A stretch of DNA of 45,069 nt from sequence record PZ334583.1; one strand, written 5' to 3'. Source of the DNA: a phage. The translations under genes and the position numbers were made by a program. This document shows, piece by piece, positions 26,306 through 36,854 of the stretch; positions within the stretch are counted from its first letter, which is position 1; each line of letters starts with the position of its first letter. The notes beneath the pieces were generated by a model that was given only the letters and a program-made list of their open reading frames with translations, was not told where the DNA came from and searched no databases.

Positions 26306-26322
26306 TTGACACTATAGAACAA
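26300..26322 (+). promoter_or_regulatory. Phage RNAP promoter (AGTTG variant, closest to the SP6 consensus)
   Basis: atttagttgacactatagaacaa; overlaps the phosphoesterase stop. Confidence 0.75.
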
Positions 26323-26405: not shown

Positions 26406-26909
26406 ATGTCACACTATGAATGTAAGAAGTGTCATAAGCGTTATGATTACTGTACTTGTGGTCAAGAGAAAACATCTTTTAAAGTTGGAGACAAGGTATT
26501 TCGTAATGAAAAAGATTCTATTCCTTGGAATCAATTCTGCAAAGAAGCTGGTATTGACCCTGATAGCCCTGTAACCATAGATGATATTGATGGCATTAAC
26601 TTGTGCTTTCGTGAGGTGAGGGGTACAGGTTGGGATTCCAAAAAATTCAAACTTGCATCTGATAAGTTAGACAACAATATGGTAACTCAGCCTAAGCACT
26701 ACGAGTTCTTTGATGGTGTAGAGGCAATCACTATCATTGCCCGCAGTATGACTGAAAAGCAATTCGCTGGGTACTGCATGGGTAATGCCCTTAAGTATCG
26801 CCTGCGTGCAGGTAAGAAGTTCAATACTGAAGAAGACTTGAAGAAGGCAGACTATTATAAAGAGTTATTCCAGAAGCATCGTCACGAATGTATTGATGAG
26901 GATATTTAA
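26406..26909 (+). CDS. Hypothetical protein with N-terminal Cys cluster and DUF3310-like C-terminal region
   Basis: ATG 26406 with RBS GGAGG; CKKCHKRYDYCTCG; PKHYEFFDGVEAITIIARSMTEKQFAGYCMGNALKYRLRAGKK. Confidence 0.7.
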   Translation: MSHYECKKCHKRYDYCTCGQEKTSFKVGDKVFRNEKDSIPWNQFCKEAGIDPDSPVTIDDIDGINLCFREVRGTGWDSKKFKLASDKLDNNMVTQPKHYEFFDGVEAITIIARSMTEKQFAGYCMGNALKYRLRAGKKFNTEEDLKKADYYKELFQKHRHECIDEDI

Positions 26910-26910
26910 T

Positions 26911-27084
26911 ATGGAAGGTAAACTGTATAGAGGGTACTTCGGTAACTTATATAAAGTAAGCTCTCGCGGTTTTGTATTGACCTCTGATGATGAAGGTGCA
27001 ATGTGGCACCTAAGTGCATATGGTTCTAACTTAGCACACTTTAAAGAGGCAATAGTCAAAGGTGTGATGAAGGAGGTGAAATGA
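26911..27084 (+). CDS. Small hypothetical protein (57 aa)
   Basis: ATG 26911 with GAGGA upstream; in-frame part of track ORF 26893..27084. Confidence 0.4.
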   Translation: MEGKLYRGYFGNLYKVSSRGFVLTSDDEGAMWHLSAYGSNLAHFKEAIVKGVMKEVK

Positions 27085-28028
27085 ACATCTTCCAATTCCT
27101 AGGTCTTCCAGAAGACCACCGCAATCATCCATTCATGCTGGTGAAGCATCGCGGTGAAGTTCCTGAGAAGAAACTTACTTTTCCATGTTATGCACAGGTG
27201 AAACGAGATGGAATATTCAGTGCTGTTGTGGTGCGCAAGGATGGTGCTGTTGCCATCTTTGGTCGTACTGGTAAGAAGCTCGCAAATGTTGAATCCTTGG
27301 AAAAGACATTTAGTGTATTTCCTGTCGGGTTGTATCTTGGTGAGTTGCAATCTATGGCTGTTGATGTTTATCTTGAAGCTCTGTCAGGAGTGGTAAACCC
27401 TAATCGTACAGAGCCACTTGACTTCATAGGCCAGCAGATTAAAGACAACCTGTATATCGACTTCTTCGATATGTTAACTATTAAGGCATTCCATGATGGA
27501 TTCACTGATGTTTCTTATCTCAAACGTTACGATGCTTTACATCGCCGCATCGGCGCTCATCTTAGCGGGTACAACGCTATCCTTCCTATTACTCCTTGCC
27601 ATAATGAGCGAGAAGTTGAAGCGTTTGCGCAAGAGCAGATAGACGCAGGCCGAGAAGGTGCGGTATTTAAACTTGACGTGGAGTACGAAAGTGGGCACAA
27701 GGGCTATCGTCAAACGAAGATCGTTCGTATGGTATCTTACGACCTAACCTGTATTGGGTGGGAGGAAGGAAAAGGTAAGTATAAAGGTAAAGTAGCTAAC
27801 CTCATTTTCAAATGGAAAGGAGGCAAGTCTGTTAAGGCTATGCTGGGTCGTGGCTGGTCACATGAGGATGCAGCCCAAATGTATCACGATATTAAGCACG
27901 GTGGCGAACTGAACGTCATTGGGAAGATCTTCGCTGTCAAGGCGTTGCAGGAATCTAGCAAGGGAGTCCTGAGACTTCCCAAGGTTTCTGAATTACGCCA
28001 CGATAAGGAGGTTCCTGATGTTTATTGA
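27081..28028 (+). CDS. ATP-dependent DNA ligase
   Basis: 315 aa; adenylation motif AQVKRDGIF (KxDG); RBS GGAGG. Confidence 0.85.
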   Translation: MNIFQFLGLPEDHRNHPFMLVKHRGEVPEKKLTFPCYAQVKRDGIFSAVVVRKDGAVAIFGRTGKKLANVESLEKTFSVFPVGLYLGELQSMAVDVYLEALSGVVNPNRTEPLDFIGQQIKDNLYIDFFDMLTIKAFHDGFTDVSYLKRYDALHRRIGAHLSGYNAILPITPCHNEREVEAFAQEQIDAGREGAVFKLDVEYESGHKGYRQTKIVRMVSYDLTCIGWEEGKGKYKGKVANLIFKWKGGKSVKAMLGRGWSHEDAAQMYHDIKHGGELNVIGKIFAVKALQESSKGVLRLPKVSELRHDKEVPDVY

Positions 28029-28143
28029 TTTGAACGAAAAACAGCTTGAATTGTTAATAGAAGCCATTGAGCAATACTATTACATGTGGGGCTATCAGTC
28101 AGAAGAATTAGACTCCTTATATTCACAACTAAAAGGAGGTTAA
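28018..28143 (+). CDS. Small ORF (41 aa)
   Basis: ATG 28018 with RBS AAGGAGG; MFIDLNEKQLELLIEAIEQYYYMWGYQSEELDSLYSQLKGG. Confidence 0.4.
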   Translation: MFIDLNEKQLELLIEAIEQYYYMWGYQSEELDSLYSQLKGG

Positions 28144-28145
28144 TT

Positions 28146-28343
28146 ATGTCTTTTGATTCTATGAAGGCAACTCGTGCAGTTGAGGTAGCAGAAGCTATCT
28201 TTGAAACTTTATCCTGTGGCATGGAAGTGCCATATACTTTACTTGCTGATGCAGAAGAACTTGGTCTTTCTGTAGAAGCTATCCAAGAGAAGGTTGACGA
28301 ATTATATGGTACAGACGAAGAAGAAACCGACGATTTCATTTGA
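28146..28343 (+). CDS. Small acidic protein (65 aa)
   Basis: ATG 28146 with RBS AAAGGAGG; ends ...EEETDDFI. Confidence 0.5.
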   Translation: MSFDSMKATRAVEVAEAIFETLSCGMEVPYTLLADAEELGLSVEAIQEKVDELYGTDEEETDDFI

Positions 28344-28347
28344 AGGA

Positions 28348-28476
28348 ATGGAGATGCTTGAGATGATTCTCAAGCCTTCTTCTCCGAAGGTGACTAAGAC
28401 TCATGAAGAGCTAGTCGTTGATGAAGTGAAGCGTTACATCATGGATTGTGTCAGAGCACAACTGGTGGTTCAATGA
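28348..28476 (+). CDS. Small ORF (42 aa), start uncertain
   Basis: MEMLEMILKPSSPKVTKTHEELVVDEVKRYIMDCVRAQLVVQ; weak RBS spacing. Confidence 0.25.
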   Translation: MEMLEMILKPSSPKVTKTHEELVVDEVKRYIMDCVRAQLVVQ

Positions 28477-28934
28477 TACGTCCAGCTTCCTTCCTAGATA
28501 TTCCTGAGATTATAAACCTTGGGAATAAATATGTGGAAGAGGAAGTCAAGGTTGTAGCCCACCACTCAGCCTCATGGAATGCAGAACAAAGTGCACATAA
28601 CCTTTGTGCATCTCTTAGTAGAGAAGATTTATTCCTATGGGTTGCTGTAGATGAAGGGCAGATTGTAGGGTTCCTGTGGGCTGGCTATCACGAGTTGGCC
28701 CCTTGGACACCTGTAAGAGTTGCCTCTGACATTCTCTTTTATATTATACCAGAGAAGCGAGGAACACTACTTGGTATGCGTCTCATCAAAGCCTTAAAGC
28801 AATGGGCTAGTGATAATGAATGCTCTGAGGTTCGCCTGTCTATCGCCTCTGGTATTAATGAAGAACGTGTCGGACGTATGTATAAGCGACTTGGCTTTGA
28901 ACCGTTTGGCACTGTGTACAACCTGAAGTTCTAA
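28473..28934 (+). CDS. GNAT-family N-acetyltransferase
   Basis: 153 aa from ATG 28473; acetyl-CoA binding signature QIVGFLWAGY...RGTLLGMRLIKALKQWA...RMYKRLGFEP. Confidence 0.8.
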   Translation: MIRPASFLDIPEIINLGNKYVEEEVKVVAHHSASWNAEQSAHNLCASLSREDLFLWVAVDEGQIVGFLWAGYHELAPWTPVRVASDILFYIIPEKRGTLLGMRLIKALKQWASDNECSEVRLSIASGINEERVGRMYKRLGFEPFGTVYNLKF

Positions 28935-28943
28935 GGAGATAAC

Positions 28944-29153
28944 ATGGGTGTTGTAAAGAAAGCATTTAAGGCTATCGGTCTTGCTCAAGATGCACCACGT
29001 ATTGAAGCCAAAGTACCAGCACAGCAGCTTGAGCGTAAGCCTGAGACTGAAGCTGAAGATATTCAAATTGGTGCAGATGGTGATGATGCGACTGCATCTG
29101 CAAAAGGTAAGCGCGGCCTTGTCCGTCCGGTAGCTTCTAGCTTGAAGGTGTGA
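28944..29153 (+). CDS. Small protein (69 aa) upstream of the portal gene
   Basis: RBS AAGGAG; ORF track. Confidence 0.55.
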   Translation: MGVVKKAFKAIGLAQDAPRIEAKVPAQQLERKPETEAEDIQIGADGDDATASAKGKRGLVRPVASSLKV

Positions 29154-29154
29154 T

Positions 29155-30705
29155 ATGAAACAGAGCACAGATTTGGAGTATGGAGGTAAGCGGTCTAAGA
29201 TACCTAAGCTATGGGAGAAATTCTCCACTAAACGTAGCTCTTTCCTTGATAGGGCGAAGCATTACTCCAAATTAACCTTGCCCTATCTGATGAATGACAA
29301 AGGTGATAACGAGACTTCGCAGAATGGATGGCAAGGTGTAGGTGCTCAGGCAACTAATCATCTAGCCAACAAGCTAGCGCAAGTACTATTCCCTGCACAG
29401 CGTTCCTTCTTCCGTGTAGACTTAACTGCACAAGGTGAGAAGGTTCTTAATCAGCGTGGCCTGAAGAAGACAGAGCTAGCTACCATCTTCGCTCAAGTGG
29501 AAACACGGGCAATGAAAGAGTTAGAGCAACGTCAATTCCGGCCTGCTGTAGTAGAAGCATTTAAGCATCTTATTGTTGCTGGCAGCTGTATGCTATACAA
29601 GCCGAGCAAAGGTGCAATCAGTGCTATCCCAATGCATCACTATGTAGTTAACCGTGATACCAATGGCGACCTGTTAGACATTATCTTACTGCAAGAGAAG
29701 GCCTTACGCACCTTTGACCCAGCTACACGTGCTGTAGTTGAGGTCGGCTTGAAAGGTAAGAAATGCAAGGAAGATGACAGCGTTAAGCTGTACACACATG
29801 CTAAGTATCTTGGTGATGGGTTTTGGGAACTCAAGCAATCTGCTGATGATATCCCTGTGGGTAAGGTGAGTAAAATCAAATCAGAAAAGCTACCTTTCAT
29901 CCCATTAACTTGGAAGCGAAGCTATGGTGAGGATTGGGGTCGCCCTCTTGCAGAGGATTACTCCGGTGATTTATTCGTTATCCAATTCTTATCTGAAGCG
30001 GTTGCCCGTGGTGCTGCGCTGATGGCAGATATCAAGTACCTGATTCGTCCTGGTGCTCAAACTGATGTTGACCACTTTGTTAACTCTGGCACTGGTGAGG
30101 TTGTCACTGGTGTAGAAGAAGACATCCATATTGTACAGTTAGGTAAGTACGCAGACCTCACACCTATTAGCGCGGTTCTAGAGGTATACACTCGCCGTAT
30201 CGGTGTTGTCTTCATGATGGAGACAATGACACGCCGTGACGCCGAACGTGTTACTGCTGTAGAAATCCAGCGAGATGCGTTAGAGATTGAGCAGAACATG
30301 GGTGGTGTATACTCCCTCTTTGCTACTACTATGCAATCGCCAGTAGCGATGTGGGGTCTGCTGGAGGCAGGGGAGTCCTTCACTAGTGACTTAGTGGACC
30401 CTGTGATTATCACAGGTATTGAAGCTTTAGGACGCATGGCTGAGTTGGATAAACTGGCTAACTTTGCTCAGTATATGTCACTGCCATTACAATGGCCTGA
30501 GCCTGTCCTAGCTGCTGTGAAATGGCCTGACTATATGGATTGGGTGCGTGGTCAAATCTCTGCTGAACTGCCGTTCCTTAAATCGGCTGAAGAGATGGCA
30601 CAAGAACAGGAAGCACAGATGCAAGCACAGCAAGCACAGATGCTTGAAGAAGGTGTGGCTAAGGCCGTGCCGGGTGTAATTCAACAAGAACTTAAGGAGG
30701 CGTAA
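29155..30705 (+). CDS. Portal (head-to-tail connector) protein, T7 gp8-like
   Basis: 516 aa; first gene of the canonical portal-scaffold-capsid order. Confidence 0.93.
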   Translation: MKQSTDLEYGGKRSKIPKLWEKFSTKRSSFLDRAKHYSKLTLPYLMNDKGDNETSQNGWQGVGAQATNHLANKLAQVLFPAQRSFFRVDLTAQGEKVLNQRGLKKTELATIFAQVETRAMKELEQRQFRPAVVEAFKHLIVAGSCMLYKPSKGAISAIPMHHYVVNRDTNGDLLDIILLQEKALRTFDPATRAVVEVGLKGKKCKEDDSVKLYTHAKYLGDGFWELKQSADDIPVGKVSKIKSEKLPFIPLTWKRSYGEDWGRPLAEDYSGDLFVIQFLSEAVARGAALMADIKYLIRPGAQTDVDHFVNSGTGEVVTGVEEDIHIVQLGKYADLTPISAVLEVYTRRIGVVFMMETMTRRDAERVTAVEIQRDALEIEQNMGGVYSLFATTMQSPVAMWGLLEAGESFTSDLVDPVIITGIEALGRMAELDKLANFAQYMSLPLQWPEPVLAAVKWPDYMDWVRGQISAELPFLKSAEEMAQEQEAQMQAQQAQMLEEGVAKAVPGVIQQELKEA

Positions 30706-31631: not shown

Positions 31632-31654
31632 ATTTACTGGACACTATAGAAGGG
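31632..31654 (+). promoter_or_regulatory. Phage RNAP promoter for the capsid gene, with 5' leader hairpin
   Basis: atttactggacactatagaaggg followed by gggagaa-aag-ttctccc. Confidence 0.88.
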
Positions 31655-32920: not shown

Positions 32921-32957
32921 GCCCTATCTACCTTGCGTAGGTAGGGTTATTTTTTGT
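32921..32957 (+). terminator. Terminator after the capsid gene (T-phi analogue)
   Basis: gccctatctacc-ttgcg-taggtagggtt imperfect hairpin followed by attttttg. Confidence 0.65.
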
Positions 32958-32968
32958 TAGGAGGATTC

Positions 32969-33706
32969 ATGCCTGTAATTAGACAAACCAGTAAAGTAGG
33001 ACACATGATGGAAGATGTGGCCTTCCAGATTATTGATAGTAAACTTGAAGCGGTCAACCTGTGTATGCGAGCTATTGGTCGTGAGGGTGTGGATTCTCTC
33101 GACTCAGGGGACTTGGACGCAGAAGATGCAAGCAAGATGATCGACATCGTATCCCAGCGGTTCCAGTACAACAAAGGAGGTGGCTGGTGGTTCAATCGTG
33201 AACCAAACTGGCAGATTGCACCTGATACCAATGGTGAAGTCAATCTGCCTAACAACTGCCTAGCAGTATTGCAGTGTTATGCTTTGGGTGAGAAGAAAGT
33301 ACCCATGACTATGCGTGCAGGTAAGCTTTACTCCACATGGAGTCACACCTTTGATATGCGCAAGCATGTTAATGCTAATGGCATGATTCGTCTTACCTTA
33401 CTCACCTTACTACCTTACGAGCATCTACCTACAAGTGTAATGCAGGCTATTGCCTATCAAGCTGCTGTAGAGTTTATTGTGTCTAAGGATGCAGATCAGA
33501 CTAAGCTAGCCACTGCGCAGCAGATAGCCACTCAGCTTCTTATGGATGTACAATCTGAGCAAATGTCACAGAAGCGATTAAACATGCTGGTACATAACCC
33601 CACTCAGCGTCAGTTTGGTATCATGGCTGGTGGCTCTCAGAATGTACCTGCTTACTCTCATTCACCTTATGAAAGTTGGGCGCTCCGTCCGTGGGAGGAT
33701 CGTTAA
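32969..33706 (+). CDS. Tail tubular protein A (gp11-like)
   Basis: ATG 32969 with RBS AGGAGG; position and size. Confidence 0.85.
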   Translation: MPVIRQTSKVGHMMEDVAFQIIDSKLEAVNLCMRAIGREGVDSLDSGDLDAEDASKMIDIVSQRFQYNKGGGWWFNREPNWQIAPDTNGEVNLPNNCLAVLQCYALGEKKVPMTMRAGKLYSTWSHTFDMRKHVNANGMIRLTLLTLLPYEHLPTSVMQAIAYQAAVEFIVSKDADQTKLATAQQIATQLLMDVQSEQMSQKRLNMLVHNPTQRQFGIMAGGSQNVPAYSHSPYESWALRPWEDR

Positions 33707-36108
33707 TGGAAGTACAAGGTTCATTAGGTAGACAAATCCAAGGGATTAGCCAGCAGCCGCCAGCGGTACGCTTGGATGGTCAGTGCACAGCTATGGTTAA
33801 TATGATACCTGATGTAGTGAATGGTACCCAATCACGCATGGGTACAACTCATATTGCGAAGATACTTGATGCGGGGACTGATGACATGGCTACTCATCAT
33901 TATCGCAGAGGTGATGGTGATGAAGAGTATTTCTTCACGTTGAAGAAAGGACAAGTTCCTGAGATATTTGATAAGTATGGGCGCAAATGTAATGTGACTT
34001 CACAAGATGCACCTATGACCTACCTCTCTGAGGTTGTTAATCCAAGGGAAGATGTGCAATTCATGACGATAGCTGATGTTACTTTCATGCTTAATCGTAG
34101 GAAAGTAGTTAAAGCTAGTAGCAGGAAGTCACCTAAAGTTGGAAACAAAGCCATTGTGTTTTGTGCGTATGGTCAATATGGTACATCTTATTCCATTGTA
34201 ATTAATGGGGTCAACGCTGCTAGTTTTAAAACACCGGATGGTGGAAGTGCAGACCATGTTGAACAAATTCGAACTGAACGTATCACTTCTGAATTGTACT
34301 CTAAGTTGCAGCAATGGAGCGGTGTGAGTGACTATGAAATACAAAGAGACGGTACTAGTATATTTATCGAGAGACGGGATGGTGCTAGCTTTACAATAAC
34401 AACCACCGATGGTGCAAAAGGTAAGGACTTAGTGGCTATCAAGAATAAAGTTAGCTCTACTGACCTACTCCCTTCTCGTGCACCTGCTGGTTATAAAGTA
34501 CAAGTGTGGCCTACTGGCAGCAAACCTGAGTCTCGTTACTGGCTGCAAGCTGAGCCTAAAGAGGGAAACCTTGTGTCTTGGAAAGAAACAATAGCTGCTG
34601 ATGTATTACTTGGGTTTGATAAAGGCACAATGCCTTACATTATTGAACGTACAGATATCATCAACGGCATAGCTCAATTCAAGATAAGACAAGGTGATTG
34701 GGAAGATCGTAAAGTAGGGGATGACTTGACTAACCCTATGCCCTCTTTTATTGATGAGGAAGTACCCCAGACAATAGGTGGAATGTTCATGGTGCAGAAC
34801 CGCCTATGTTTTACAGCAGGTGAAGCGGTTATTGCTTCTCGTACATCATACTTCTTCGATTTCTTTCGTTATACGGTTATCTCTGCATTGGCAACTGACC
34901 CATTTGATATTTTCTCAGATGCTAGTGAAGTCTACCAGCTAAAACATGCAGTGACCTTAGATGGCGCTACCGTGTTGTTCTCTGATAAGTCACAATTCAT
35001 ACTGCCAGGAGATAAGCCTTTAGAGAAGTCAAATGCATTGCTTAAGCCTGTTACAACATTTGAAGTGAACAATAAAGTGAAGCCAGTAGTAACTGGTGAA
35101 TCGGTAATGTTTGCCACTAATGATGGTTCTTACTCTGGTGTACGAGAGTTCTATACAGACTCTTATAGTGACACTAAGAAGGCACAAGCAATCACAAGTC
35201 ATGTGAATAAACTCATCGAAGGTAACATTACCAACATGGCAGCAAGCACCAATGTCAACAGGTTACTTGTCACTACCGATAAGTATCGTAACATAATCTA
35301 CTGCTACGATTGGTTATGGCAAGGAACAGACCGTGTACAATCAGCATGGCATGTATGGAAGTGGCCTATAGGTACAAAGGTGCGAGGTATGTTTTATTCT
35401 GGTGAATTACTTTACCTGCTCCTTGAGCGAGGGGATGGCGTATATCTGGAGAGGATGGACATGGGTGATGCACTAACCTACGGTTTGAATGACCGCATCA
35501 GAATGGATAGGCAAGCAGAGTTAGTCTTCAAGTATTTTAAAGCAGAAGATGAATGGGCGTCTGAACCTCTTCCTTGGACTCCTACTAACCCAGAACTTTT
35601 AGATTGCATCTTAATCGAGGGTTGGGATTCATATATTGGTGGCTCTTTCTTATTCAAGTACAACCCTAGTGACAATACTTTGTCTACAACCTTTGATATG
35701 TATGATGACAGTCATGTAAAAGCGAAGGTTATTGTTGGTCAGATTTACCCTCAAGAGTTTGAACCTACACCTGTGGTTATCAGAGACAATCAAGACCGTG
35801 TATCCTATATTGATGTACCAGTTGTAGGATTGGTTCACCTTAATCTTGACATGTACCCCGATTTCTCCGTAGAAGTTAAGAATGTGAAGAGTGGTAAAGT
35901 ACGTAGAGTATTAGCGTCAAACCGTATAGGTGGTGCTCTCAATAATACAGTAGGCTATGTTGAACCGAGAGAAGGTGTCTTCAGATTTCCACTGAGAGCT
36001 AAGAGCACGGATGTTGTTTATCGTATTATTGTAGAGTCACCCCACACATTCCAGCTTCGTGATATTGAGTGGGAAGGGAGCTACAATCCAACCAAAAGGA
36101 GGGTCTAA
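33706..36108 (+). CDS. Tail tubular protein B (gp12-like)
   Basis: 800 aa from ATG 33706 (TAATG overlap, RBS GGGAGGA); N-terminus ...IQGISQQPPAVRLDGQ matches the conserved gp12 GISQQP motif. Confidence 0.9.
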   Translation: MEVQGSLGRQIQGISQQPPAVRLDGQCTAMVNMIPDVVNGTQSRMGTTHIAKILDAGTDDMATHHYRRGDGDEEYFFTLKKGQVPEIFDKYGRKCNVTSQDAPMTYLSEVVNPREDVQFMTIADVTFMLNRRKVVKASSRKSPKVGNKAIVFCAYGQYGTSYSIVINGVNAASFKTPDGGSADHVEQIRTERITSELYSKLQQWSGVSDYEIQRDGTSIFIERRDGASFTITTTDGAKGKDLVAIKNKVSSTDLLPSRAPAGYKVQVWPTGSKPESRYWLQAEPKEGNLVSWKETIAADVLLGFDKGTMPYIIERTDIINGIAQFKIRQGDWEDRKVGDDLTNPMPSFIDEEVPQTIGGMFMVQNRLCFTAGEAVIASRTSYFFDFFRYTVISALATDPFDIFSDASEVYQLKHAVTLDGATVLFSDKSQFILPGDKPLEKSNALLKPVTTFEVNNKVKPVVTGESVMFATNDGSYSGVREFYTDSYSDTKKAQAITSHVNKLIEGNITNMAASTNVNRLLVTTDKYRNIIYCYDWLWQGTDRVQSAWHVWKWPIGTKVRGMFYSGELLYLLLERGDGVYLERMDMGDALTYGLNDRIRMDRQAELVFKYFKAEDEWASEPLPWTPTNPELLDCILIEGWDSYIGGSFLFKYNPSDNTLSTTFDMYDDSHVKAKVIVGQIYPQEFEPTPVVIRDNQDRVSYIDVPVVGLVHLNLDMYPDFSVEVKNVKSGKVRRVLASNRIGGALNNTVGYVEPREGVFRFPLRAKSTDVVYRIIVESPHTFQLRDIEWEGSYNPTKRRV

Positions 36109-36854
36109 TGGCTATAGGTTCAGCCGTTATGGCTGGTATGTCTTCTATTGGTAGTATGTTTGCAGGTAGCGGTGCAGCAGCCGCTGCTGGTGGTACTGCC
36201 GCAGCAGCAGGAGGGACAGCCGCCGCAGGTGGCGGAGGTTTGCTTGGCTCCCTTGGTAGTTTCTTAGGAGGTTCTTCTGCTGGCTTCTCTAATGCAGGAC
36301 TGCTTAGTGCAGGTATGCAAGGTCTTGGTCTTCTAGGCAATCTTTTTGGTGGAAGCGATGAAGCCAAAGCTATGAAGAAAGCTCAGGAGGAGCAATGGCG
36401 GCAGCAGTTAATTGCTACACAAGAAGCATATAAGACAGTGGCAGATGCAGAACGCTCTGCTGCTAAACAGTATCATGCGGATGCAATAAGCAATCAGGCT
36501 TCACTACTGCAGCAGAGAGCACAGGTTGCATTGCTTGCTGGTGCTACTGGTACTGGTGGTAACTCTGTGTCTTCTATGCTGAATGACTTAGCAGCAGAAG
36601 GCGGAAGGAACCAGAGTACAATTATCGATAACTATGAGAATCAGAAGATTAACTTCACCAACCAGCTTAAGTCCATCCAACGTGGTGGTCAGATGCAGAT
36701 GCGTGAGTTTAAGAAACCTTCTGCCGTGAGCACCTTGGTGCAAGGTATACCGAGTCTGGCATCTGCCTATGTAACAGGTAGTAAGTCCGGCATGGCTTTA
36801 GGTAAAGCTTTAACTGATTCTCGTACATATTCATCTGGAACAAGAGGTATTTAA
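36108..36854 (+). CDS. Internal virion protein A (gp14-like), Gly/Ala-rich N-terminus
   Basis: ATG 36108 (TAATG overlap, RBS AAAGGAGGG). Confidence 0.75.
   Translation: MAIGSAVMAGMSSIGSMFAGSGAAAAAGGTAAAAGGTAAAGGGGLLGSLGSFLGGSSAGFSNAGLLSAGMQGLGLLGNLFGGSDEAKAMKKAQEEQWRQQLIATQEAYKTVADAERSAAKQYHADAISNQASLLQQRAQVALLAGATGTGGNSVSSMLNDLAAEGGRNQSTIIDNYENQKINFTNQLKSIQRGGQMQMREFKKPSAVSTLVQGIPSLASAYVTGSKSGMALGKALTDSRTYSSGTRGI

Follow-up and report, generated by a model that had tools for sequence, protein, structure and literature searches.

The 45,069-nucleotide phage DNA of sequence record PZ334583.1, hereafter called the window, is a Vectrevirus genome of the K1E/K1-5 type (Autographiviridae, Molineuxvirinae). 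Between its DNA ligase and portal genes, it carries a gene for a GNAT-fold N-acetyltransferase of 153 amino acids, preceded by three small open reading frames (ORFs), which we call orfA, orfB, and orfC (Table 1). The original prediction had described this arrangement, and the four ORFs of 41, 65, 42, and 153 amino acids were indeed found on the plus strand where it had placed them. As it had stated, the ligase lies upstream, but the GNAT gene does not abut the portal gene, as the gene for the 69-residue protein gp28 (28944-29153) intervenes. In K1E, the order is gp25, gp26, gp27 (annotated "acetyltransferase"), gp28, and then the portal gene gp29. Over the 1.3 kb around the GNAT gene, the window was 98.5% identical to Vectrevirus LI10P3, 98.4% to phage VEc3, and 94% to K1E.

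Table 1. Genes and features of the GNAT locus and of related regions of the window (aa, amino acids; pI, isoelectric point)
Feature	Position	Strand	Basis or remark
Phage RNA polymerase promoter core ACACTATAG	26309..26317	+	Nearest promoter upstream of the GNAT gene
63-aa ORF between gp23 (DUF3310) and ligase	26893-27084		phrog_15259 at 3.2e-37
ATP-dependent DNA ligase (K1E gp24 ortholog), upstream limit of the block	27081..28028	+	Pfam DNA_ligase_OB_2 3.6e-12, DNA_ligase_A_M 4e-7; K1E annotation
orfA, 41 aa, acidic	28018..28143	+	AAGGAGG 6 nt upstream; start overlaps ligase stop
orfB, 65 aa, pI 4.05 (K1E gp25 / SP6 gp26)	28146..28343	+	AAGGAGG 6 nt upstream; phrog_5860 at 6.6e-39
orfC (K1E gp26 / SP6 gp27)	28306..28476 (56 aa) or 28348-28476 (42 aa)	+	phrog_6507 at 3.4e-27
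GNAT-fold N-acetyltransferase, 153 aa (K1E/K1-5 gp27, SP6 gp28)	28473..28934	+	Pfam, PHROG, predicted structure
gp28, 69 aa, basic (pI 9.2), T7 gp7.3-like small virion/ejected protein	28944..29153	+	phrog_1320 at 7.2e-12
Portal (head-tail connector; K1E gp29), downstream limit of the block	29155..30705	+	K1E annotation, ORF list
IVP-B-like internal virion protein	36069..36854	+	phrog_805 at 9.2e-52; directly after tail tube B

The assignment to the GNAT fold was borne out by Pfam, by PHROG, and by the topology of a structure model. The protein matched Acetyltransf_1 (PF00583) at 38.9 bits, for a cut-off of 20.7 (E 1.2e-9), and Acetyltransf_7 and Acetyltransf_10 were likewise above their cut-offs. 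Profile classification of the GNAT subfamily, which had been proposed as a check, placed it in phrog_1249, a podovirus family, over its full length (residues 1-151, 6.6e-54). The same PHROG was also matched by proteins of SP6, Era103, phi-A318, uligo, SIO1, ICBM2, YeP6, and RHEph15. The AlphaFold2 model (mean pLDDT 90.1) showed the element order β1-α1-α2-β2-β3-β4-α3-β5-α4-β6-β7, that is, the classical GNAT order. Searched with Foldseek, it returned 819 PDB matches at E≤0.001, the top 50 of which were all GNATs (Naa60, DpA, PAT/Bar, RimI, and AAC among them). Because enzymes acetylating N-termini, polyamines, phosphinothricin, and aminoglycosides all occur among these neighbors, no substrate can be read from the fold. 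RimI, Ard1, and Naa60 ranked high among the matches, those listed having TM-scores of 0.69-0.78. Like the window protein, they are minimal single-domain GNATs; they act on protein amines. Polyamine and phosphinothricin acetylases matched as well as these three did, so that structural similarity identifies no substrate, and the RimI model of NCBIfam gave the window protein 23.5 bits, for a cut-off of 86.4.

Motif conservation was assessed in 67 family members, 23-76% identical to the window protein. Motif A takes the variant form R96-G97-x-x-x-G/A101; R96 was present in all 67 members, and G97, G/A101, and the preceding P93 were each present in 59 of the 67. Motif B, which reads S126-G-I-N-E-E-R-V-G-R-M-Y137-K-R-L-G141-F142, was kept to a similar degree (S/T126 and G141 in 66/67 each, F/Y142 in 63/67, Y/F137 in 60/67, and G127 in 56/67). 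R3, D9, E23, and D/E86 were each kept in at least 59 members. Such near-invariance of the cofactor motifs favors a working enzyme over a decayed fold, and the conservation pattern indicates that the protein is probably a catalytically competent acetyl-CoA-dependent N-acetyltransferase. The ratio of nonsynonymous to synonymous substitution rates (dN/dS) was 0.05-0.24 when the gene was compared with diverged relatives, indicating purifying selection.

The gene is conserved within its phage group and well beyond it. K1E gp27 and SP6 gp28 were 97% and 76% identical to the window protein, with the same length and the same neighbors, and are thus orthologs. Phage P433.1 encodes a 100% identical protein annotated as "N-acetyltransferase"; the gene is therefore already known to databases under the same annotation. 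A homolog was found in 249 phage records, and among 1.84 billion representative proteins, the family profile retrieved 1247 clusters at E≤1e-10, nearly all of about 150 amino acids. Scans for related loci that started from single proteins returned close relatives only. The original prediction would have been refuted by a conserved and characterized family member with a known benign substrate; conservation was found, but not characterization, the searched literature yielding no functional work on gp27/gp28 of K1-5, K1E, or SP6 or on Vectrevirus acetyltransferases. It had also held that this was not a core gene of T7, and T7 indeed has no sequence-detectable ortholog.

Synteny of the gene extended to at least four subfamilies of the Autographiviridae. 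The order small ORF, GNAT, gp7.3-like gene, portal recurred in Molineuxvirinae, Colwellvirinae, Krylovirinae, Ghunavirus, a Rhizobium phage, and metagenomic contigs. Phages with this arrangement included SP6 and Era103; Vibrio phi-A318, Pseudomonas uligo, Aeromonas MJG, and Marinomonas CPG1g of the Colwellvirinae; LUZ19, Axy23, phiB1_1, and MR8 of the Krylovirinae, plus LIMEzero; and Rhizobium RHEph15. In Ghunavirus KNP and the related phage Lepni01, the gene upstream of the GNAT gene was a gp6.7 homolog instead of a small ORF. Across phages, the downstream neighbor encoded a basic protein of about 60-120 amino acids with a K/R-rich, G-x-x-L-G-I-like end. Aside from these phage loci, the loci L084-L086 (4001-5116; P0064) encoded a 371-residue protein with two tandem GNATs of the window type (profile E 1.2e-26). 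Its neighbors were a giant cadherin/Big_9 repeat protein of up to at least 2213 amino acids, a C39-peptidase ABC exporter, an HlyD-like protein, and an HlyC acyltransferase. That locus resembles a bacterial type I secretion operon and may hint that relatives of the GNAT modify exported proteins.

The window GNAT could be related to Rac, that is, gp28 of Pseudomonas phage LUZ19. Rac is a GNAT of about 150 amino acids belonging to phrog_3986, and its gene occupies the same slot after the replication/transcription module, the order being small ORF, GNAT, small virion protein, portal. Kinship between the two was seen at the profile level only: pairwise BLASTP of the window protein against Rac gave nothing (E 4.9), and the window protein had no match to phrog_3986 at E≤0.01. 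In contrast, hhalign aligned the two families over 137 columns (Prob 96.7%, E 4.2e-10), and a hidden Markov model of the Rac family matched this GNAT, and no other, among the 276 ORFs of the window (E 1.3e-6). Conversely, phrog_1249 was the second-best PHROG of Rac. Both proteins have a "YV-PE-R-G" segment in motif A, whereas they differ in PHROG, share only about 17% identity, and Rac lacks most of motif B. Rac induces cleavage of the C-terminal domain of the host RNA polymerase alpha subunit and is toxic when expressed alone, and its effects depend on residues of the acetyl-CoA pocket (PMC7552054). In T7, gene 7 (L009, 1631-2032; "host range") lies between gp6.7 and gp7.3, which is the slot of the Rac-type GNAT in Ghunavirus. 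T7 gp7 was considered as a degenerate relative of Rac, but with an hmmscan E of 0.025 for phrog_3986 (residues 48-133) and an hhalign Prob of 0.6%, we do not claim this relationship.

A second relationship led to T7 gp13, also called IVP-A. The phrog_1249 profile matched SIO1 gp26.2 (2e-36) and proteins of Lentibacter ICBM2 (6e-27) and Yersinia YeP6 (1.5e-44), and tblastn with the window protein reached the same three phages at E 2e-8, 3e-7, and 5e-13, respectively. In all three, the GNAT gene sits between a tail gene and IVP-B, that is, in the slot of T7 gene 13. Members of phrog_1249 thus occupy the IVP-A slot in Zobellviridae and YeP6, whereas the window GNAT gene lies before the portal instead. 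The occupants of this slot in SIO1-like phages and the phiRIO-1 group were described by Hardies et al. as non-structural genes of the acetyltransferase family, and T7 IVP-A was noted to match acetyltransferases as well (PMC4819975). Bischoff et al. made the same suggestion for cobaviruses (PMC6775973). T7 IVP-A is given as required for morphogenesis and for infectious particles and as not being kept in virions (PMC4819975, citing Kemp et al. 2005).

A T7 gp13 homolog (97% identical) was predicted with a pLDDT of 93.9 to have the GNAT element order, and its 50 best PDB matches were all GNATs, RimI coming first. T7 gp13 and the window GNAT therefore have the same predicted fold and the same strand-helix order; like the other slot genes, both encode small proteins beside genes for ejected proteins. 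Sequence comparisons did not connect them: the window GNAT had no match to PF11090, the gp13 hidden Markov model found nothing among the window ORFs, and by hhalign, neither the GNAT family nor the Rac family aligned significantly with T7 gp13. In a BFVD fold search, no protein named as gp13-type appeared among the 50 best matches shown. The "gp13" hits in the PhageMaP preprint concerned gp130 and have no bearing here. Predicted fold and gene position are hence all that links the window GNAT to T7 gp13.

In the window, tail tube B (33676-36108; phrog_457 tail protein at 3.8e-262) is directly followed by the IVP-B-like gene, which leaves the gp13/IVP-A slot empty. It is likewise empty in LUZ19, so that the pre-portal gene is the only GNAT-fold gene detected in these two phages. 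Concerning the IVP-B-like ORF itself, we noticed that it comprises 261 amino acids from the first GTG, but that residues 74-258 alone are spanned by the family profile. The gene may start further downstream, unless its product carries some 70 additional N-terminal residues, encoded across the end of tail tube B.

The timing of GNAT production could be approached from promoter motifs. The promoter core ACACTATAG had 11 exact copies on the plus strand of the window. The copy at 26309 precedes gp23, the 63-codon ORF, the ligase gene, the small ORFs, the GNAT gene, gp28, and the portal and scaffold genes; the next one was at 31641, and the first convincing terminator downstream of the GNAT gene was at 32921, 3' of the capsid gene. 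Taken together, these positions point to co-transcription of the GNAT gene with late replication and early assembly genes, and the motifs predict that it should be on the same message as gp23, ligase, portal, and scaffold. Around the locus, a scan found sigma-70 promoter-like sites at chance level only. Terminator-like sites were somewhat commoner there than in shuffled sequence (12, for a shuffle mean of 6.7); hairpins within orfB and orfC were set aside as terminators, their T-tails being weak.

Collectively, these data give good support to a general statement, namely, that the locus encodes an active protein acetyltransferase produced at the transition from replication to assembly. Modification of a host or phage protein during infection, which the original prediction had put forward, remains the most plausible class of function. 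More specifically, our best overall explanation, which we put forward tentatively and at somewhat less than even chances, is that of a protein acetyltransferase of the IVP-A/Rac lineage that is active, stays out of the virion, and is made together with assembly genes. Starting at the promoter at about 26309, the phage RNA polymerase would transcribe the GNAT gene along with the genes for ligase, the gp7.3-like protein, portal, and scaffold, and translation of the GNAT gene would be coupled to that of the upstream orfC. The enzyme would then act in trans, as a non-virion protein, at the switch from replication to assembly and would acetylate a protein amine, either a lysine or an N-terminus.

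Two roles may be considered for such an enzyme. The most likely one, which we favor without giving it the better half of the odds, would be IVP-A-like, in that the enzyme would condition, or help to load, the ejected proteins of small size and basic charge as well as the inner core (gp28 and gp34-36), so as to make particles infectious. What favors it is the homology to occupants of the IVP-A slot, the empty slot in the window, the constant linkage to a gp7.3-like gene and the portal gene, and a conservation resembling that of core genes. Next comes a Rac-like role, possible yet rather unlikely, in which acetylation of host proteins would shut down host functions. The two roles could co-exist.

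Several observations weigh against the IVP-A/Rac lineage explanation. On the side of T7 gp13, hhalign of the GNAT family against the gp13 family was not significant (Prob 10.9%), and the gp13 family consensus lacks the R-G-x-x-x-G/A loop, so that gp13 may work differently. Moreover, Ghunaviruses carry both a pre-portal Rac-type GNAT and gp13 (PMC4517105), which means that the pre-portal GNAT there is not simply a relocated gp13. On the side of Rac, the phenotype appears narrow, as the Rac homolog of LKA1, 32-37% identical, does not cause cleavage of the alpha subunit (PMC7552054), and growth of P. putida is unaffected by Rac (PMC11794488); the low identity of the window protein to Rac, only about 17%, counts here too. 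Finally, the timing of transcription is deduced from promoter motifs.

Among the competing explanations, the one that fares best, while still being unlikely, is a purely Rac-like host take-over enzyme, which would acetylate host proteins (proteases, the transcription machinery, or others) minutes after infection and have no role in assembly. The full-length profile homology to Rac speaks for it, as does the common slot directly before a small virion protein and the portal, and the small upstream ORFs appear weakly related to each other. It suffers from the same points as above, that is, the genus-specific effect of Rac, its inertness in P. putida, and its distance from the window protein. In addition, the members in Zobellviridae and YeP6 lie within the module of tail and internal virion proteins, an odd place for a host take-over gene, and a core-like conservation is unusual for accessory host-shutoff genes.

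The IVP-A-like role can also be pushed further, at the price of becoming improbable. The pre-portal GNAT would then be the still-catalytic podovirus IVP-A, acetylating or otherwise acylating the lysine-rich small ejected proteins (gp7.3- and gp6.7-like) or inner-core proteins as a required step of particle building, and the translationally coupled orfC-family protein would be a partner dedicated to it. T7 gp13 would represent the same lineage in the form of a degenerate pseudo-enzyme, and Rac would affect RNA polymerase through a side activity specific to its genus.

That the gene encodes a small-molecule acetylase, a metabolic accessory enzyme acting on polyamines, aminoglycosides, or phosphinothricin-like compounds, is somewhat less probable still. 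The best PDB sequence matches, albeit weak, were polyamine enzymes (DpA at 6.2e-5 and diamine acetyltransferases), DpA, PAT/Bar, and AAC were among the top Foldseek matches, and a cationic substrate would be in keeping with the acidic residues conserved at D9, E23, and D86. Yet a mixture of N-terminal, polyamine, and antibiotic acetyltransferases is what any minimal GNAT gives in a structural search, and an accessory metabolic gene would not be expected to be so strictly linked to virion genes in several families of podoviruses. All NCBIfam resistance and metabolic models stayed far under their cut-offs: those for AAC(6'), ArsN (ArsN1), RimI, and MshD scored 14-28 bits (27.9 at best), for cut-offs of 86-325. 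The antibiotic or polyamine acetylase mentioned in the original prediction was thus not supported.

Slightly less credible is a pseudo-enzyme, a GNAT-fold scaffold or chaperone comparable to T7 gp13 that would bind partners without transferring an acetyl group. T7 gp13 provides a precedent insofar as it has the fold without the cofactor loop motif, and IVP-A has been described as a non-structural assembly protein (PMC4819975). The near-invariance of motifs A and B in 67 diverged members is, however, hard to explain if the protein does not bind the cofactor.

Least likely of all is a toxin-antitoxin-like pair, in which the GNAT would be a growth-arresting toxin (acting, for instance, by aminoacyl-tRNA acetylation) neutralized or regulated by orfC: in nearly all Autographiviridae examined, the GNAT gene comes after a small ORF whose stop overlaps it, Rac alone is toxic, and the TacT, AtaT, KacT, and ItaT modules resemble the window in having a GNAT fold of similar size and a small upstream gene, but the DUF1778 antitoxin is theirs only, since orfA, orfB, and orfC matched neither DUF1778/RHH nor any other Pfam family (E≤0.1), nor any NCBIfam or PADLOC family (PADLOC giving a single, not meaningful match at E 0.015); the family profile, searched against all PDB sequences, had 43 matches at E≤1, and none of them was one of these four toxins; the members in Zobellviridae and YeP6 have no such upstream ORF; four-base overlaps of adjoining genes are commonplace in these genomes; and the phage is strictly lytic, with the gene fixed in synteny and not part of a mobile two-gene module. 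The suggestion of a toxin with a small antitoxin was therefore not supported.

The analogies with Rac and with IVP-A are both already published, the former for phiKMV-like and the latter for SIO1-like phages; the present analysis adds the SP6/K1E-type gene as a link between them. Little is understood of what T7 gp13 (IVP-A) and its podovirus equivalents do; infectious particles require these proteins but do not contain them. If the SP6/K1E-type GNAT were the enzymatically intact counterpart, it would offer a tractable handle on IVP-A-type proteins in a well-behaved coliphage, a system that could separate acetylation in the loading of ejection proteins from a Rac-like action on the host. As a sequence feature, the GNAT gene is ordinary; its modest interest lies in the lead that it gives on this type of protein. 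For phage-therapy candidates of the K1E/K1-5 type, it is a conserved phage gene, and nothing here marks it as a toxin or an antibiotic-resistance determinant.

We also examined the small ORFs upstream of the GNAT gene. In terms of dN/dS, orfA (0.12-0.15), orfB (0.04-0.24), and orfC (0.10-0.28), as well as gp28 when compared with diverged relatives (0.05-0.25), were comparable with the GNAT gene. For the GNAT gene, orfB, orfC, and gp28, the relatives compared had saturated or near-saturated synonymous divergence. Judged by these ratios, all five are genuine genes and not chance ORFs. Strong Shine-Dalgarno sequences lie 5-6 nucleotides upstream of orfA, orfB, and gp28.

The distribution of orfA set it apart. 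It is an accessory small gene outside the conserved module: of 32 related loci that were compared with the window, no more than 3 had it, namely K1E (L001, 6119-6241) and the loci L026 and L030 (from position 2546 in both), and it had no family match in Pfam, PHROG, or NCBIfam. Where present, it was 87-93% identical, with a synonymous divergence (dS) of 0.2-0.5, even in Klebsiella-type relatives. Between L026 or L030 and the window, dS was 0.3-0.5 for orfA and about 2 for the adjoining GNAT gene. A dS so far below that of the GNAT gene in the same loci points to a small cassette exchanged recently.

Orthologs of orfB were found in SP6 and Era103, together with a weak match in Vibrio phi-A318. 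Its product ends in EEETDDFI, a strongly acidic C-terminus. The homologs of phi-A318, MJG, and CPG1g have similar acidic tails, with aromatic residues in phi-A318 and MJG (EEDDFDDE and EDDFDEKFD). The acidic C-terminal tails of T7 gp2.5 and gp4 bind DNA polymerase, and the tail of orfB, whose gene lies directly after that of the ligase, recalls them.

As for orfC, the original prediction was right about its presence, whereas the 42-residue version starting at 28348 is less likely than one of 56 residues starting at 28306, as in K1E gp26. An N-terminal helix common to the counterparts in other subfamilies begins upstream of 28348, and orfC therefore probably starts at 28306, within the end of orfB. 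Because it would then overlap the acidic tail of orfB, conservation by itself cannot settle the start. Its stop overlaps the GNAT start as ATGA, and a small ORF with a stop overlapping the GNAT start was also found in SP6, Era103, phi-A318, uligo, MJG, CPG1g, RHEph15, LUZ19, Axy23, phiB1_1, and MR8. By hhalign, the orfC family matched the Colwellvirinae set at E 7.6e-4 and the Krylovirinae gp27 set at E 3.6e-4. These values are suggestive, not conclusive, of weak relatedness, and possibly homology, among the small ORFs coupled to the GNAT gene across subfamilies. Incidentally, in Aeromonas phage MJG (L060, about 1640-1800), an unannotated ORF whose product ends in RIGREAYDTLMGLLSEDTETPTTPYGVLVANSTKRQLRKKVETLFQP stops at the GNAT start. 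Its homology to gp26 of phi-A318 and gp26 of uligo is clear, and it appears to be a gene call missed in the deposited record.

Downstream of the GNAT gene, gp28 belongs to the same PHROG as T7 gp7.3, which matched phrog_1320 at 9.7e-30. Its C-terminal GKRGLVRPVASSL motif was common to the homologs located 3' of the GNAT gene in every subfamily examined. BLASTP gave no alignment between gp28 (69 amino acids) and gp29 of LUZ19, and their putative kinship rests on the common C-terminal motif and on PHROG links.

Last, SP6 has no room for a counterpart of the 63-codon ORF between gp23 and the ligase gene (26893-27084), as gp24 and gp25 abut there, and in the RefSeq record of K1E, the matching stretch has been left unannotated.

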